Shown piece after piece: positions 875 to 49,134 of a DNA stretch of 55,162 nt. Below the pieces are notes generated by a model. The model saw nothing but the letters and a program-made list of their open reading frames with translations, searched no databases and was not told where the DNA came from. Every line of letters starts with the position of its first letter. Within the stretch, counting starts at the first letter, position 1. The DNA is from an uncultured Candidatus Saccharibacteria bacterium (GTDB lineage: Bacteria; Patescibacteriota; Minisyncoccia; Minisyncoccales; Staskawiczbacteraceae), in NCBI GenBank assembly GCA_964404005.1, contig CAYOIH010000002.1, positions 1 to 55,162 of the forward strand. Direction: 5' to 3'. A program made the position numbers and the translations under genes.

Positions 875-1009
875 AAACGGCTCTAGAGTTGGAGGTACTT
901 TTATGTCTGGGACATAAAGAAAGATTTATCTGAGGAATAATCGAGCCGGAGCAAGATTATCCGAAGCTGAGATAAATCCAAATAAATACCTCCAACCCTA
1001 GAGCCGTTT
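875..1009. repeat. 135-nt inverted-repeat element: 23-bp closing stem enclosing two internal hairpins (structured RNA, complex terminator or MITE-like)
   Basis: aaacggctctagagttggaggta (875-897) pairs with tacctccaaccctagagccgttt (987-1009), 22/23 bp. The interior folds into hairpin 898-919 (cttttatgtc/gacataaag) and a long hairpin 923-978 (gatttatctgag/ctgagataaatc plus ggaataatc/gattatcc). Confidence 0.6.
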
Positions 1010-34249: not shown

Positions 34250-34825
34250 TTATATTAATGTTTTTGGCATAAATTCCAATACTTCTGAATTTCTGATAAG
34301 AATTGTGCGATTGGTTGTAAAAGTTAATCCTTTGTTGGGGGAATTTTCAAAACCAAGGTAAATGCGTTTTATTTTTCTTTTTTCTAATTCTTTTATTGCC
34401 GGCTGAAGGTCGGAATCGGAGCTTGCGATAATAGCCGTATTTAACGTTTGGTCACAGGCAAGAGAAACCATATCAACCGCAATTCTGACATCGACACCTT
34501 TTTCCCTGAATAATAGAAATTTATGTCCTTTTGGACAGCCTGCCTCGTTTCCTCTTACGTGTCCAGCATAAATTACCTCAAATTCTTGCTTTTCCAAATT
34601 AGTTTTCAATAATCTTTGTTTTTGTATAAGTTCTGCAGATTTTTCTTTTGTTTCATTATGATTTATAATTCTTCCTATGTAAAATATTTTTTTATCCACT
34701 TTTATTCCCGACAACACTTTATTTAACAAACCCGCAAAATTATAAGTGGATAAATCAACATCTTTTTTAATTGCTTCAATTTTGCTGATAAAGTTACGTC
34801 CATCTATAAAAAGTATTGTTTGCAT
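34250..34825 (-). CDS. NYN-domain (LabA/DUF88-like, PIN-like fold) protein
   Basis: ILFIDGRNF..., GVDVRIAVDM, AIIASSDSDLQPAIKELEKRKIKRIYL are characteristic NYN acidic motifs. Confidence 0.8.
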   Translation of the reverse strand: MQTILFIDGRNFISKIEAIKKDVDLSTYNFAGLLNKVLSGIKVDKKIFYIGRIINHNETKEKSAELIQKQRLLKTNLEKQEFEVIYAGHVRGNEAGCPKGHKFLLFREKGVDVRIAVDMVSLACDQTLNTAIIASSDSDLQPAIKELEKRKIKRIYLGFENSPNKGLTFTTNRTILIRNSEVLEFMPKTLI

Positions 34826-34828
34826 AAA

Positions 34829-34862
34829 TTAAAACCCCAGCGGACCTTGCGGCTGGCTGGGG
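34829..34862 (-). terminator. Hairpin + U-run abutting the start codon of NYN gene 34250-34825
   Basis: The minus strand reads ccccagc-cagccgcaaggtccg-ctgggg-tttt. It lies downstream of NYN gene 34917-35420 and ends 5 nt before the next ATG. Confidence 0.5.
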
Positions 34863-34916
34863 CGTTGCTAAATTAATGTTAGCATACTATACGCCCGTGT
34901 CAATAGCAAGGTTAAT

Positions 34917-35420
34917 TTATTTTTTTAATAAAAATTTGGGGAGGCCTTCGTCTAAATCAATAAACTCGTCGGCGACTTCTTTTAATCTTGCGGAAGTTGT
35001 TCTGCCAAATGCCATTACTTCAATTCTTTTCCCCTGGTTCTTTAGATATTCAACCAAAGCGATAAAATCTCCATCTCCCGAAACCAAAACAATCACATCT
35101 AATCCCGGTGCGGTTCTGATGGCGTCGATTACAATTCCAACATCCCAGTCGGCTTTTTTGGCTCCGCCATACCATTCTTGTAAATCTCTAACCCTTGTTT
35201 CAATTCCAATTTTTGATAATGCATCAAAAAACGGCGCTTCTTCGCCGGTTTTTGTCCTAACCACATAACCAAAAGCCCTGATGAATTTTCTTCCTGCCAC
35301 TGCTTGTTTTAAAACCTCCTGGTAATTAACTCGTGAATGATAAAGGTTTTTTGCAGAGTGATATAAATTCTGTACATCTATTAATACTTCTACTCGTTGT
35401 TCTTTTGGTTTTGGCTGCAT
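34917..35420 (-). CDS. NYN-domain (LabA-like) protein
   Basis: EVLIDVQNLYHSAK, DWDVGIVIDA, VIVLVSGDGDFIALVEYLKNQGKRIEVMAF. The stop of rpsO is 1 nt upstream. Confidence 0.82.
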   Translation of the reverse strand: MQPKPKEQRVEVLIDVQNLYHSAKNLYHSRVNYQEVLKQAVAGRKFIRAFGYVVRTKTGEEAPFFDALSKIGIETRVRDLQEWYGGAKKADWDVGIVIDAIRTAPGLDVIVLVSGDGDFIALVEYLKNQGKRIEVMAFGRTTSARLKEVADEFIDLDEGLPKFLLKK

Positions 35421-35778: not shown

Positions 35779-35849
35779 TGCCCCTACTCAGAATCGGACT
35801 GAGATAGGCTGCTTAAGAGGCAGCTACTTTACCATTAAGTTATAGGGGC
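35779..35849 (-). tRNA. tRNA-Lys (anticodon CUU), no encoded CCA
   Basis: Hand fold: acceptor gccccta/taggggc, D arm actt-aatggta-aagt, anticodon arm gctgc-ctCTTaa-gcagc, T arm ctcag-tccgatt-ctgag, discriminator A. Confidence 0.8.
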
Positions 35850-35871
35850 AAAATTTAGCTACGGGGGTAAA

Positions 35872-36294
35872 TTAAAATAGTGAGGTTAGCTTATAAATAT
35901 AGCTGATAGGAGTGGCCCCTATTGCGCCCAAGATAAAATTGATTATCGCTTTTGAGCCCAAAGCCAGGACCAAACCGATAATTCCAGCCCAAAGAATTTT
36001 TTTGCCAAGGCCAAACCAGCCGGGGTCGCCCGCAGAAATCATCATAAAAATCGCTCCGACTAAAATTGCTATTGTTGCCAGCGGTGCAGCTATATATTTT
36101 ACGATGAAGTCGTAAATTTTTATAATCATAGTAAAAAAATCTGTTAATTTGCACGCATCACTTCCGTCTGACGCGCAACCACAATTTACTATTCCGCTTC
36201 CATCTCCGCAAGCAGCTCTTACAGAAAATGGAATAAAAATTACTGATAATAAACAAAATATAACTACTGTAAAAAATATTTTTTTAGTGTTCAT
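35872..36294 (-). CDS. Stand-alone VirB2/TrbC-like T4SS pilin-family protein (140 aa)
   Basis: Start placed at MNTKKIFF (36294); the listed longer ORF runs through tRNA genes. Signal peptide, Cys-containing segment CGDGSGIVNCGCASDGSDAC, then two TM helices separated by ISAGDPGWFGLGKK, as in the N-terminal modules of genes 12678-19123. Confidence 0.7.
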   Translation of the reverse strand: MNTKKIFFTVVIFCLLSVIFIPFSVRAACGDGSGIVNCGCASDGSDACKLTDFFTMIIKIYDFIVKYIAAPLATIAILVGAIFMMISAGDPGWFGLGKKILWAGIIGLVLALGSKAIINFILGAIGATPISYIYKLTSLF

Positions 36295-36308
36295 ATATAT
36301 AGGCCTTG

Positions 36309-36368
36309 TGCCCTCGGCAGGACTCGAACCTGCAGACCCTTGGTTCGAAGCCAAGTATGATATCTTCA
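36309..36368 (-). pseudogene. tRNA-Arg(UCG)-like 3' three-quarter molecule lacking a contiguous 5' acceptor/D strand
   Basis: The minus strand reads tgaagata-tcat-a-cttgg-ctTCGaa-ccaag-ggtct-gcagg-ttcgagt-cctgc-cgagggc-a. The anticodon arm, T arm and 3' acceptor strand are canonical. The preceding sequence is the right arm of the 17-bp inverted repeat, not a 5' acceptor strand. Confidence 0.55.
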
Positions 36369-36479
36369 CCCCCACACCAAAGTTTTTTGTGCCCCCAGGA
36401 AGATTCGAACTCCCAACTTTTGGTTCGAAGCCAAATATGATATCCATTTCACTATGGGGGCGAAACTTTGGTGTGGGGG
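36369..36479. repeat. Perfect 17-bp inverted repeat bracketing tRNA-Arg
   Basis: cccccacaccaaagttt (36369-36385) and aaactttggtgtggggg (36463-36479); 4 nt and 1 nt separate the arms from the enclosed tRNA. Confidence 0.9.
36390..36461 (-). tRNA. tRNA-Arg (anticodon UCG), no encoded CCA
   Basis: Hand fold: acceptor gccccca/tgggggc, U8, D arm gtga-aatggata-tcat, anticodon arm tttgg-ctTCGaa-ccaaa, T arm gggag-ttcgaat-cttcc, discriminator A. Confidence 0.85.
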
Positions 36480-36546
36480 CAAGCTTTCACCACGGGCACA
36501 CAATAATTAAAGATGTTAATAATTTATGCTTATTTTACCTAAAAAA

Positions 36547-36575
36547 TTGAAAAAACACAAGTTTTAAGCTAATAT
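36547..36575 (+). promoter_or_regulatory. Putative cca promoter (TTGAAA-17-TAATAT), -10 ends 8 nt before ATG (near-leaderless)
   Basis: ttgaaa (36547-36552), 17-nt spacer, taatat (36570-36575), ATG at 36584; no SD. Confidence 0.45.
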
Positions 36576-36583
36576 GTTTATAT

Positions 36584-38053
36584 ATGGTAATTCCTAAAGA
36601 AGTAAAATTAATTATTGAAAAACTACATAAAAGCAGCCTGCCTGCCGGCAGGCAGGGTTTTGAGGCGTATATCGTGGGCGGATGCGTACGCGATTTTTTG
36701 CTGGAAAAGGAGCCAAACGACTGGGACGTTACAACTAATGCAAAACCCGAAGAAATTCAAAAAGTTTTTCCAGACAGTTTTTATGAAAATAATTTTTTGA
36801 CTGTTACCACCAGAACAGAGAGCAAAAATCCAAAGTTATCGGAAGTCGAAATTACAACTTATAGATTTGAGGCAAAGTATTCTGACAAAAGGCATCCAGA
36901 TGAAGTAAAATATGCAAAAACTTTACAGGAAGATTTGAGCCGTCGTGATTTTACCGTGAACGCAATGGCCATGGACGGGGAAAAAAAGCTTGTAGACCTG
37001 TTTGAAGGACAGAAAGACTTAAAAAATAAAATAATCAGAACTGTTGGAAATCCGGAAGAAAGGTTTAATGAAGATGCTTTGAGAATGTTAAGAGCTGTAA
37101 GATTTGCTACAACTCTGGGATTTGAAATTGAAGGAAGAACGGCAGAAGCAATTAAAAAAAATAGCGTTTGGTTAGAAGCAATTTCAAAAGAAAGAATAAG
37201 AGATGAATTTGTAAAAATAATTATGGCAGATAACGCGGCTGACGGAATAGAATTGCTTAGAGAATTAGGGCTGTTAAAATACATTGTGCCAGAATTGCTG
37301 GATAATTACGGAATTGCGCAAAATAAGCATCATATATATGACTGCTACTGGCACGCAGTAAAATCTTTAGAGTATACAGCAAAGAAAAATTTTAATATGT
37401 ATGTTAGGGTTGCTGCCCTACTCCACGACATTGCTAAGCCAAGAGTAAAAGTAGGAGAAGGCGAAGAAGCAACCTTTTACAATCATGAAATTGTGGGAGC
37501 CAAAATAACTTTCCAGATTTTGAACCGTTTAAAATTTTCCAAAAAAGAAGTTGAAAAAATTACAAAGCTTGTAAGATATCATTTGTTTTACTACAATGTG
37601 GACGAGGTGGGAGAATCGTCTGTAAGAAGGCTGGTTAGAAATATGGGTCCGGAAAACATGGAAGAACTTTTGCAGGTAAGACAGGCAGACAGAATTGGAT
37701 CTGGTGTTCCCAAAGCCGAGCCATATAAATTGAGACACTTAAAATATCTGATTGATAAAGTTTCTCAAGACCCTATTTCAGCTAAAATGCTGAAGGTTAA
37801 CGGAAGCGATATAATAGAACTGTTAAAAATAAAGCCCGGGCCAAGAATCGGCTATATTTTAGATGTGCTTCTGGGGTATGTTTTGGACGACCCTAAAAAA
37901 AATACCAAAGAATTTTTAGAAGGCGAAGTTAAAAAACTGGGAGAACTGTCAGATGCAGAACTTGCAAAGTTAGCTGAAAAAGCAGAGAATGACGTCCAAG
38001 ACTTAGAAACAAAAAAAGACGAAATGACAAAGCAAAAATATTGGGTTAAGTAA
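36584..38053 (+). CDS. cca: CCA-adding tRNA nucleotidyltransferase with HD domain
   Basis: GGCVRDFLL, DWDV, RRDFTVNAMA (PolyA_pol head) and HD domain LLHDIAKP. None of the tRNA genes in the window encodes CCA. Carries a 20-nt perfect palindrome in frame near the N-terminus. Confidence 0.92.
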   Translation: MVIPKEVKLIIEKLHKSSLPAGRQGFEAYIVGGCVRDFLLEKEPNDWDVTTNAKPEEIQKVFPDSFYENNFLTVTTRTESKNPKLSEVEITTYRFEAKYSDKRHPDEVKYAKTLQEDLSRRDFTVNAMAMDGEKKLVDLFEGQKDLKNKIIRTVGNPEERFNEDALRMLRAVRFATTLGFEIEGRTAEAIKKNSVWLEAISKERIRDEFVKIIMADNAADGIELLRELGLLKYIVPELLDNYGIAQNKHHIYDCYWHAVKSLEYTAKKNFNMYVRVAALLHDIAKPRVKVGEGEEATFYNHEIVGAKITFQILNRLKFSKKEVEKITKLVRYHLFYYNVDEVGESSVRRLVRNMGPENMEELLQVRQADRIGSGVPKAEPYKLRHLKYLIDKVSQDPISAKMLKVNGSDIIELLKIKPGPRIGYILDVLLGYVLDDPKKNTKEFLEGEVKKLGELSDAELAKLAEKAENDVQDLETKKDEMTKQKYWVK

Positions 38054-47130: not shown

Positions 47131-49134
47131 ATGAGTTTGATTTATTATCCGATAATTGTTTCGTTGTTTGCAATAGTGTTTGTTTATTATTTAACAGTGC
47201 AGATTAAGAAGGCGCCAGTTGCGGGAGATAAAGCAATTGCCATAACCGCAGCAGTGCAGGAGGGGGCAATGTCTTACTTAAAAAGACAGTATAAGACAAT
47301 TGCCATTGTTGGAGTAGTTATTTTTATTCTATTATTTTTTATGGGCTGGAAAATTGCCATCGGATTTTTAATTGGAGCTGTTTTGTCTGGAGTTTCCGGA
47401 TTTATTGGAATGATTGTTTCCACTCAAGCAAATACCAGAGTTGCCGAAGCCGCAAAAAAAGGCTTGGAAAAAGCTTTGGATATTTCTTTTAAGGGAGGCC
47501 TAATCACGGGCTTAATGGTGGTATCTTTGGGTTTATTATCTGTTGCGGGATACTATCTTTTAACAGGAATTGACGGCTTGATAGCTTTGGGATTTGGAGC
47601 TTCTTTGATTTCGGTTTTTGCCAGAGTTGGTGGAGGAATTTACACAAAGGCAGCCGATGTGGGAGCAGACTTGGTTGGAAAAGTTGAGAAAGGAATTCCA
47701 GAGGATGATCCAAGAAATCCAGCAGTTATCGCCGACCAGGTTGGAGACAACGTGGGAGACTGCGCAGGCATGGCAGCCGATATTTTTGAAACGTACGCTA
47801 TTACAACAGTGGCGGCAATGATTTTGGGCGCGTTGCTTTTTCCAAGAGCAACACAGTTTATTTTATTGCCTCTAATTTTGGGAAGCGTTTCAATTTTAAC
47901 TTCTATTATAGGAAGTTTCTTTGTAAGATTGCCTGCCCTGAGCCGAGTCGAAGGGGGTAAGTCGCAATCCATTATGGGTTCTATGTATAAAGGATTGGCA
48001 GCCACAGTTATTTTGTCGGCAATCGCATTTTATCCCATAATCACAAAATTAATGGCAGGGCAGGCAATTCCGGTAAACAACCTTTATTTTTCAACATTGG
48101 TGGGATTGGTAATCGCGGTTGGAATGTTTGTTATCACAGAGTATTACACCTCAAAAAAATATGGTCCGGTAAAATCAATTGCCAAGGCTTCAGAAACAGG
48201 CCACGCAACAAATATAATCAGGGGAATTGGATTAGGAATGCAGTCAACAGCTTTCCCGGTTTTGTTAATTGCATTTGGAACAATTTTAAGTTTTTGGCTG
48301 GCTGGAATTTACGGAGTTGCATTAGCCGGCGTGGCAATGCTTTCCATTTCCGGAATTGTTGTTGGAGTTGATGCTTACGGCCCGATTACAGATAACGCCG
48401 GAGGAATTGCAGAAATGTCGGGAATGCCGGAAGGCGTCAGAAAAATCACAGACGCGTTGGATGCGGTTGGAAACACAACAAAGGCAGTCACAAAAGGATA
48501 CGCAATTGCTTCAGCAGGATTGGCGGCGTTGGTTTTGTTTTCCGCATACGTTGAAAAGGTTGGCATAAACGGTTCAATAAATTTTTCATTAACAAATTCT
48601 TATGTTATTGCCGGTTTATTAATCGGCGGACTGCTTCCCTACTTGTTTGCTTCATTTTTAATGGGAGCTGTCGGGAAAACAGCGGGAAAAGTTGTTGAAG
48701 AAGTAAGAAGGCAATTCAAAAATATCACAGGATTAATGGAAGGCACAGCAAAACCGGAATATGGAAAATGCGTTGATATTGTCACTAAAGCCGCAATTAA
48801 AGAAATGATGATTCCAGCCTTAATCCCAATTGCAGCTCCAATTTTAGTGGGATTTATTTTAGGGCCCGAAGCTTTGGGAGGATTATTGATTGGAGCAATT
48901 GTCACGGGATTATTTGTTGGAATTTCAATGACAACAGGAGGAGCTGCGTGGGACAACGCCAAAAAATACATTGAAGGTGGAGCGCATGGAGGCAAAGGTT
49001 CATTTGCCCACCAAGCCGCCGTCACCGGCGACACCGTCGGCGATCCTTACAAAGATACTGCCGGCCCGGCTATTAACCCAATGATTAAAGTCCTTAACAT
49101 CGTAGCGCTTTTAATCGTCGCTTTTCTAGTTTAG
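47131..49134 (+). CDS. hppA: Membrane-bound proton/sodium-translocating pyrophosphatase
   Basis: [61 protein letters not shown]. Contains the in-frame insertion [11 protein letters not shown]. Confidence 0.96.

Follow-up and report, generated by a model that had tools for sequence, protein, structure and literature searches.

A tRNA-Arg(UCG) gene between palindromic arms within the D loop of a second, broken tRNA-Arg(UCG) gene in Candidatus Staskawiczbacteria

The stretch of DNA analysed here, called the window, was the 55,162 nucleotides of contig CAYOIH010000002.1 (assembly GCA_964404005.1), from a genome of Candidatus Staskawiczbacteria in the Candidate Phyla Radiation (CPR). On its minus strand, an intact 72-nt tRNA-Arg(UCG) gene (36461-36390) was enclosed by two perfect 17-nt inverted arms, and this arm-tRNA-arm unit sat within the D loop of a second tRNA-Arg(UCG), the pieces of which were found at 36499-36485 (15 nt) and 36364-36309 (56 nt). 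The insert of 120 nt (36484-36365) broke the outer tRNA-Arg around G18/G19. The locus is most probably explained by a resident tRNA-Arg of one allele type (type A) that was disrupted in its D loop by a dispersed palindrome carrying a working tRNA-Arg of another type (type B), with the outer gene left as a decaying relic. The parts of the locus, in the order of the minus strand, were the following.

36560-36532, minus strand: promoter-like TTGTGT and TAAAAT separated by 17 nt, upstream of the outer 5' fragment.
36499-36485, minus strand: 5' fragment of the outer (resident, type-A) tRNA, GTGCCCG-TG-GTGA-AA, running from the 5' strand of the acceptor through nt 8-9 and the 5' strand of the D stem into the first part of the D loop.
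36484-36463, minus strand: left element end, GCTTG and the 17-nt arm CCCCCACACCAAAGTTT (36479-36463), located by inverted-repeat search.
36461-36390, minus strand: inner tRNA-Arg(UCG), type B, 72 nt, CCA not encoded, called by Rfam and ARAGORN.
36385-36365, minus strand: right element end, the arm AAACTTTGGTGTGGGGG (36385-36369) and TGAA, located by inverted-repeat search.
36364-36309, minus strand: 3' part of the outer tRNA-Arg(UCG), with GATA, the D-stem 3' strand TCAT, the anticodon arm (UCG), the variable loop, the T arm, CGAGGGC and the discriminator A.

A single C separated the left arm from the inner tRNA, and CAAA separated the inner tRNA from the right arm. The inner tRNA scored 66.2 bits with the Rfam tRNA model (model positions 1-71) and the ARAGORN call agreed, which bears out the complete 72-nt tRNA-Arg(UCG) claimed in a preliminary description of this DNA. 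The inverted repeat claimed there as perfect was indeed complementary at 17/17 positions (36369-36385 and 36463-36479, 100%, 77 nt apart). Elsewhere in the 55 kb of the window the 17-mer had no exact occurrence; allowing as many as 3 mismatches gave 3 matches against 0.26 expected by chance, a count reached in 0/100 shuffles. The second, incomplete tRNA-Arg(UCG) of the same description was also recovered, by an Rfam match limited to model positions 9-63 (36370-36317, 33 bits) and an nhmmer match to profile positions 18-73 (E=1e-12), while ARAGORN forced a 76-nt call in which the acceptor stem was poor.

Alignment with L001, L003 and L015 (GCCCTCGTGGTGAAA; loci other than that of the window are given by number) showed that the outer 5' fragment had lost 2 nt from the type-A GCCCTCG. 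The far 5' acceptor strand that had been proposed for the second tRNA exists, but the proposed register of GCCCGTG, with 6/7 pairs, leaves no nt 8-9, and the pairing in register is 5/7. When ARAGORN was run on the outer halves after these had been joined artificially, the 5/7 acceptor stem contained the mismatches G3.G70 and C5.A68 and one G-U pair, and the D loop had 6-7 nt and lacked G18-G19. The hexamer GGTGAA, earlier reported at both junctions, was found at 36491-36486 and 36370-36365; it is probably not a target-site duplication, because its right-hand copy is the usual element end, GGGGG+TGAA, seen in 9/29 copies among the matches listed. In the predicted fold (minimum free energy, MFE, -88 kcal/mol, z = -5.4), an arm helix of about 21 bp stands directly beneath the inner acceptor stem, closed by a 3x3 internal loop, and the outer 5' fragment is brought to the 3' end. 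The promoter string, ttttttcaattttttaggtaaaat, was also present ahead of the single tRNA-Arg in L003, L004, L016 and L019; it scored under the threshold of a consensus promoter scanner, and its conservation suggests that 36532-36560 is the ancestral tRNA-Arg promoter.

For the origin of the two alleles, 80 syntenic loci were retrieved through the neighbouring CCA-adding enzyme, most of them labelled Candidatus Staskawiczbacteria or other Paceibacterota/Patescibacteria. The gene order tRNA-Lys(CUU), pilin-like gene, tRNA-Arg(UCG), CCA enzyme, tRNA-Pro(CGG) and tRNA-Ala(CGC) was widely conserved. ARAGORN found exactly one tRNA-Arg(UCG), uninterrupted, in 68 of the 80 loci and none within the stretch fetched in the other 12; two calls were obtained in the window only. 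Type A corresponds to GCCCTCGTGGTGAAA...GCAGGTYCGAGTCCTGCCGAGGGCA and type B to GCCCCYATAGTGAAATGG...GGGAGTTCGAATCTTCCTRGGGGCA; the outer 3' part in the window was of type A and the inner tRNA of type B. A neighbour-joining tree of the CCA enzyme placed the window in a clade with L001, L002, L003 and L010. The closest relatives hold a single uninterrupted gene of the outer type at the orthologous locus, the comparison that the preliminary description had proposed: type A was uninterrupted, in the same place and behind the same promoter, in L001, L003, L004, L009 and L015, and the outer 3' part was identical to L001 at 52/56 positions. The inner tRNA was identical at 71/72 positions to the sole tRNA-Arg of L006, from another clade, and the inner and outer copies shared only 44/55 positions (80%). 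The outer 3' part is nearest to its own clade and the inner tRNA to another, which identifies the outer copy as the resident gene and its inner counterpart as an allele from elsewhere. The tRNA-Arg site was empty in L001, L003, L004 and others, that is, the insertion is a presence/absence polymorphism at an orthologous site.

Two further observations concern this gene among the relatives. The single tRNA-Arg(UCG) lay on the opposite strand, that of the CCA gene, in 10 of the 68 loci (L005, L006, L011, L021, L022 and five others), and the gene has been inverted or re-inserted repeatedly among the relatives. In L053 (3480-3890), three tandem units of about 126 nt followed tRNA-Arg, each ending with the stretch from T loop to 3' end (CGAATCCCTCCGAGAGCAC); this repeat region contains a run of N and may partly be an assembly effect.

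The window arms each represent one half of a dispersed palindromic element of about 40 nt, and the tRNA occupies the usual place of its apical loop. An exact 17-mer scan of metagenome contigs returned at least 119 loci. Among the matches listed, 29 were compact palindromes (arm, loop of 1-8 nt, arm) on unrelated metagenome contigs, with arms of 17-22 nt and 35-42 nt in all, and they had no coding capacity themselves; the arm complement usually had one extra base, AAACTT(C/A)TGGTGTGGGGG. The left flanks of these 29 listed copies were CTTG (8/29), NTTCA (10/29) and CTCG (2/29), and the right flanks were TGAA (9/29) and CAAG (9/29), so that by its flanks (gCTTG...TGAAg) the window copy is an ordinary member of the element. 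Further copies were present in L021 and L031, and a few copies had 27-73 nt of non-tRNA sequence between the arms. In L021, L118 and L160, an old tRNA-Lys fragment contained in its D loop an empty copy whose arms were identical to those of the window, and contigs of the L021/L118 type share lakes with the window organism. The palindrome matched no family in an Rfam search of hairpin-bearing loci. Viral contigs gave 15 matches to a 16-mer, and 0 matches when scanned for loaded cassettes with either arm variant.

Many copies were located inside long open frames, where they are read as ~PHTKVSxETSGVG and add about 14 residues. Pfam confirmed four of these genes as housekeeping genes, each with the CCCCCACACC palindrome in frame.

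L107, 896-933: LigA.
L193, 1634-1673: PEP-utilising enzyme (PPDK_N domain).
L189, 3157-3197: Mur ligase.
L140, 7654-7693: KsgA.

Profile searches and inspection for nested loci showed that the architecture recurs. In many loci, an intact tRNA stood between fragments of an older one that shared its anticodon and its strand (Arg, Ala, Pro, Thr and Lys), and the insertion points were always in loops (D, anticodon, variable or T). The loci were as follows.

L031, Arg: D-loop split identical to that of the window, with three nesting levels.
L007 and L008, Arg: 5' fragment GCCCTCGTGGTGAAA; 3' fragment consisting of T arm and acceptor only.
L027, Arg: 5' fragment alone remaining.
L024 and L036, Arg: heavily eroded.
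L030, Arg: copy ending after the anticodon loop.
L017, Ala: anticodon-loop split, arms CCCCCACAAAATTT.
L014, Ala: sister of L017, same event, decayed.
L031 and L069, Ala: nested.
L067 and L072, Pro: nested.
L145, Thr: arms CCCCACACCAA, of the arm family of the window; insert in the variable-loop region.
Window, L021 and L008, Lys: nesting or relics.

The outer tRNA-Arg copy of L031 had perfect acceptor and D stems and was itself enclosed by CCCCCACAAAAATTT / AAATATTTGTGGGGG within a third, decayed copy. In L017, the right arm and linker (23 nt, identical) followed the inner tRNA-Ala and appeared again after the older 3' half, which indicates that the cassette was hit again by the same cassette. 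The outer copies of L036, L024, L027 and L014 were far more eroded than that of the window, and those of L007, L008, L024, L027 and L036 had lost anticodon arms or 3' halves. Two element families were each found in empty and tRNA-loaded versions, with the tRNA always at the hairpin apex. The borders of the inner tRNAs ran close against the acceptor stem, with 0-3 nt at the 5' end and 1-6 nt at the 3' end. The arm family of the window also flanked Thr and Ala tRNAs in other genomes. Nested loci were scattered on the CCA-enzyme tree among lineages with intact single genes, so the events are recurrent or the alleles have been exchanged horizontally.

The tRNA relics also contained inserts of another kind. 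A covarying two-hairpin insert of about 40 nt stood right after TTCG in the T loops of tRNA-Arg relics on the minus strand in L007 (~165-105), L008 (~1815-1760), L024 (~3240-3185) and L036 (~3735-3680), and in the UCG anticodon loop in L030 (~3865-3825, minus strand). Both stems covaried across species, for example TCGGGT/ACCCGA versus TCAGGT/ACCTGA. In L181 (~880-1035) and L139, about 100 nt after tRNA-Pro(UGG), hairpins ending in ...CGGGACA were joined to a duplicate of the stretch from T loop to 3' end (AATCCCACCGCCCCGA), and the end ...GGGACA(AG) also closed the inserts of L017, L067, L031 and L145.

Of the readings offered in the preliminary description, disruption of the D loop by a tRNA cassette flanked by inverted repeats is the one retained here: the outer copy is the ortholog of the single gene of the relatives, the arms belong to a dispersed element and the architecture recurs. 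The inner tRNA-Arg is presumed to be the working gene. Transcription would run from the old promoter through the nest (outer 5' piece, arm, tRNA, arm, outer 3' piece), and RNase P together with trimming at the 3' end would free the inner tRNA, possibly once the 21-bp arm helix had been cleaved by RNase III, as is known for Correia elements (PMC10969869). Because CCA is not encoded in the inner tRNA, it would be put on after transcription by the CCA-adding enzyme encoded next door, and the outer gene would be a relic at the start of decay. The loaded element (arms and tRNA) most likely came as one unit from a relative with type B; insertion as a unit is suggested because the arm and linker of L017 were duplicated along with the tRNA. 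The cassette may have persisted because the copy it destroyed was exactly the copy it replaced. Any other insertion would remove an essential single-copy tRNA and be lethal, and so would never be seen, which would explain why the cognate gene is always the target. A second tRNA-Arg(UCG) gene does not appear to be needed, as 68 of the 80 relatives have one and CGA and CGG together accounted for 63/465 Arg codons in long open reading frames (ORFs).

Several points weigh against this explanation. The 56 nt of the outer 3' part show no flaw so far: the anticodon and T arms are perfect, and the 27-43 pair differs from that of L001 by a compensated change. Either the event happened recently or this part remains under constraint, perhaps as a signal for processing in the 5' untranslated region of the pilin-like gene. 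No consistent target-site duplication was seen across the 29 listed copies, and no cognate transposase was noticed near the loci, where no dedicated search was made. All loaded cassettes found were in cognate tRNA genes, and some nested cases (L007, L008) had no recognisable arms. No near-identical strain with an empty site was found, the next match of the pilin-like protein being 79% identical, and an exact-protein look-up returned the same arrangement only, with no empty-site version. Movement as a unit is suggested by L017 and the shared arms, and it is from sequence that we infer the inner tRNA to be the sole mature species. The RNA-seq runs listed contained 7-13% of the words of the locus, which were conserved tRNA parts of other organisms.

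The same end state could have arisen in two steps, in which an empty palindrome first entered the resident D loop and its apex, which is prone to breakage, afterwards captured a foreign tRNA-Arg. Empty copies of the same element in the tRNA-Lys relic D loop (L021, L118, L160), other palindromes without cargo in the loops of tRNA relics (L008, L014, L069, L145) and the constant apical position of the tRNA close to its acceptor stem all agree with such an origin. It is nevertheless rather unlikely, since its first step would inactivate a single-copy essential tRNA gene, the duplication of arm, linker and tRNA in L017 points to a whole loaded unit inserting, and no locus was found with an interrupted tRNA as the only copy. 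A functional split tRNA had also been put forward in the preliminary description. In the form considered here, both tRNAs would be made, and with the inner one cut out, the outer halves would be held by the 17-bp helix and the acceptor and D stems and be ligated or used as a two-piece second tRNA-Arg(UCG). The intact outer 3' part, the predicted fold that places the 5' fragment at the 3' end and the perfect acceptor and D stems of the outer copy in L031 would suit it. However, the predicted fold contained no bulge-helix-bulge (no 4-bp helix between two 3-nt bulges), and the joined halves form no sound cloverleaf, with an acceptor stem of 5/7 in register, no nt 8-9 in the 6/7 register and no G18-G19 in the D loop. 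The covariance-model check proposed for the 5' fragment went against the pairing as well, as Rfam rejected the outer acceptor and matched positions 9-63 only. Moreover, the anticodon is redundant with the intact gene inside, 68 relatives have one uninterrupted gene, and the outer copies decay in L007, L008, L024, L027 and L036. The intron mode of ARAGORN, applied to all loci, gave implausible calls only and no interrupted tRNA as sole copy. A split tRNA is therefore very improbable.

Leader-trailer helices are common around stable RNAs in rRNA and tRNA processing, and the helix here abuts the acceptor stem, as would be expected if tandem copies had been rearranged locally and a stem had evolved in place without any mobile element. 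The inner and outer copies agree at only 80% of positions and resemble different clades, though, compact palindromes with identical arms turn up in dozens of unrelated settings (coding regions included), and the same arm family surrounds Thr and Ala tRNAs elsewhere; a local duplication with a purpose-built stem thus deserves slightly less credence still. The related suggestion of a processing stem beside a tRNA remnant holds in part: there is indeed a remnant, and RNase III could act on the 21-bp helix, but these arms recur at dozens of unrelated sites, so the stem was not built for tRNA-Arg. An assembly chimera, with the tRNA-Arg loci of two strains joined into an apparent nest, has next to nothing left to recommend it. 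The k-mers of tRNAs are common to co-occurring relatives and Logan contigs often end there, which would favour such an artefact, yet Logan contigs from two independent lake-water runs spanned 35821-36700 with 0 differences, two of them (961 and 968 nt, depth 17-22) crossing the whole nested structure, an identical 266 nt stood on a Joint Genome Institute (JGI) contig, and the same architecture was present in independent metagenome-assembled genomes of other species. The population reads represented by Logan contigs showed no polymorphism of the window structure, and the joints seen in population reads trace to a co-occurring relative of the L021/L118 type.

Other candidate explanations were tried and rejected. 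The 18-nt leaders had been taken as three tandem duplications of the tRNA 5' end (repeat family D1), an account dropped in favour of outer 5' fragment, element arm and inner tRNA. Derivation of the arms from the acceptor stem of a third tRNA layer was ruled out, the arms being a dispersed element. A group I intron, which in bacterial tRNA genes usually occupies the anticodon loop, was ruled out, as Rfam gave no intron match in the window and the 120-nt insert in the D loop is made of a hairpin and a tRNA. An integrase-borne island with a tRNA attB was discarded since there was no integrase among the neighbours and the inner and outer copies are different alleles and not an att duplication.

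The tRNA-Lys next to this locus carries traces of a similar history. The features concerned were the following.

36294-35872, minus strand: pilin-like gene (type-IV secretion), Pfam T4SS_pilin E=9e-4, below the curated cut-off.
35867-35853, minus strand: 5' fragment of a tRNA-Lys(CUU) relic, CCCCCGTAGCTAAAT, 15 nt, 3-4 nt upstream of the intact tRNA-Lys (35849-35779).

The start codon of the pilin-like gene stood 14 nt past the outer tRNA 3' end, as in relatives, and the gene is probably co-transcribed with the tRNA locus; its homologues are named VirB2 pilin by one source. Gene callers stretched its ORF to 191 aa (protein P0001, 35872-36447, minus strand), through the outer and into the inner tRNA, and this over-extended product is the cluster representative in a public protein collection. 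The tRNA-Lys of relatives begins GCCCCCGTAGCTCAATTGG, and L021 and L118 retain a longer tRNA-Lys relic with the palindrome of the window in its D loop. The tRNA-Lys of the window was of a 72-nt type (K2) and that of its closest relatives (L001-L003, L010) of a 74-nt type (K1), which indicates that tRNA-Lys was replaced too. Among the window neighbours (CCA enzyme, pilin-like protein, S15 and NYN proteins) there was no integrase nearby and no att direct repeat. Two adjacent NYN-domain (PIN-like nuclease) genes lay between PNPase and S15 beside the tRNA cluster (34250-35420, minus strand).

Small GIY-YIG ORFs were observed 3-160 nt from tRNA genes in eight loci, and none was present in the window. 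They comprised L008 (1297-1073), L044 (3688-3476), L117 (343-131) and L151, and a group about 125-160 nt after tRNA-Ala in L005, L007, L012 and L018. That of L008 lay between a disrupted old and a new tRNA-Lys and is a candidate nuclease for tRNA gene turnover.

A second palindromic family was found in the CCA-adding enzyme gene next to the nest.

36637-36656, plus strand: second-family palindrome CCTGCCTGCCGGCAGGCAGG, perfect, 20 nt, inserted in frame.

The 21-nt insert adds seven residues (SLPAGRQ) to the CCA enzyme and was confined to the window and L001 among the 20 relatives aligned. The tRNA relics of L069, L008 and L014 contained the same palindrome, in T loop, D loop or anticodon region, and it was also found at a second CCA-gene site (L030) and abutting tRNA-Arg (L063). 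Two other inverted repeats were seen in the window. The intergenic one at 875-1009 (plus strand; 31 nt, 87% complementary, around 73 nt) contained no tRNA and had no Rfam match; it may be a structured RNA or another element. The one at 47928-48068 (plus strand; 13 nt, perfect, ATTGCCTGCCCTG / CAGGGCAGGCAAT, 115 nt apart) lay apparently inside coding sequence and may be another in-frame element.

A tentative generalisation is that CPR families of tiny palindromes insert in the single-stranded loops of DNA that forms hairpins, namely the D, anticodon, variable and T loops of tRNA genes (and are tolerated in frame in proteins), can carry a complete tRNA gene at the apex and, if a loaded one lands in the cognate gene, destroy and replace that gene in one step; such an element would be a self-complementing selfish cassette that spreads foreign alleles horizontally and leaves nested relics. 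Such elements might be moved by a stem-loop-recognising nuclease, either of the HUH (IS91/RAYT-like) or of the GIY-YIG type. A literature search found no prior description of nested tRNA genes or palindromic elements in CPR, and wider tRNA gene replacement by loaded palindromes in these bacteria is apparently undescribed. The tRNA genes of reduced genomes are usually seen as stable, vertical and single-copy, whereas here they seem to be turned over by foreign alleles on miniature palindromes, with layered relics as a record of successive replacements. If true, this would be a new kind of selfish element, non-autonomous and with an essential-gene cargo that complements its own damage, and it would explain tRNA allele types that are incongruent with the CPR species tree. 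For annotation the nests are a hazard, because tRNA finders call spurious second genes and gene callers extend ORFs through tRNAs. The in-frame palindromes, which resemble Rickettsia palindromic elements (RPEs), are a possible source of protein variation in CPR.

Comparison with known systems showed partial likeness to several. Integrative elements (phages, ICEs), on which Williams is said to have reported in 2002, reportedly take tRNA genes as attB, make the gene whole again with a copy of the 3' segment that they carry and leave displaced fragments. The locus shares with them the tRNA target, insertion in or near stem-flanked loops, an invader that supplies what it destroys and the fragments that remain; it differs in having no integrase nearby and no att repeat, in the supply of a whole gene and in a size of about 120 nt. 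The GIY-YIG nuclease SegB, a free-standing homing endonuclease in the tRNA cluster of phage T4, is linked to preferential inheritance of a tRNA gene region, and the small GIY-YIG ORFs near tRNAs in 8 loci, once between old and new tRNA-Lys, recall it; the window has no GIY-YIG gene, however, and homing replaces alleles cleanly, with no nesting. The split, tri-split and multi-intron tRNAs of archaea (Nanoarchaeum, Caldivirga, Thermoproteales) are similar in their loop interruptions (the D loop included), a helix joining the flanks and mobile-like inserts, and transposition of tRNA introns has been summarised (PMC10714607). The present case differs from them in that the host is a bacterium, there is no bulge-helix-bulge, the exons rebuild no sound tRNA, the insert holds a redundant intact tRNA and the copies decay.

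The IS91 family of rolling-circle (HUH) insertion sequences is characterised by the lack of target-site duplication, a tetranucleotide specificity for CTTG/GTTC/CTCG and subterminal palindromes at both ends (PMC13181058). The elements described here resemble it in their left flanks (CTTG, NTTC-A or CTCG in 8, 10 and 2 of the 29 listed copies) and in tRNA-loop inserts directly 3' of GTTC (L067, L017, L069, T loops), although the flank motifs occur on both sides here and may belong to the palindrome itself. The IS91 family is also known for carrying off adjacent DNA. The elements here differ in their length of 40-120 nt, and no IS91-like transposase was identified in the data, in which no dedicated search was made; the resemblance is a lead and not membership. 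The hairpins formed by repetitive extragenic palindromic (REP) sequences, or REPINs, which Bertels and Rainey are said to have described in 2011, reportedly consist of two inverted arms that form a dispersed hairpin of low to moderate copy number with a variable spacer. These sequences, mobilised by REP-associated tyrosine transposases (RAYTs) of the HUH type, are like the present elements in being dispersed hairpins of two inverted arms with a variable spacer. The arms here lack a GTAG-type REP head, and no RAYT gene was seen, again with no dedicated search made; REPINs are extragenic, whereas the elements here are inside genes and tRNAs.

A likeness in form and context is shared with RPEs and with other prokaryotic MITEs (miniature transposable elements with inverted repeats) such as Correia and ERIC, which are small, non-coding, dispersed palindromes, here as there in a reduced genome. 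Insertion of RPEs in frame and the cutting of Correia inverted repeats by RNase III once they are transcribed are both documented, and a 2024 review of MITEs nowhere mentions tRNA cargo (PMC10969869). As with RPEs, insertion in frame was seen in housekeeping genes (LigA, KsgA, Mur ligase, PEP-utilising enzyme and CCA enzyme). The elements differ in their length (20-42 nt versus roughly 100-150), in their sequence and phylum, in the absence of any target-site duplication seen here, in the striking frequency of tRNA loops among their sites and in the whole tRNA gene carried by some copies. The element thus behaves like the selfish palindromes of the MITE, REP and RPE kinds, and it departs from them in its tiny size, its preference for tRNA loops and its tRNA cargo.

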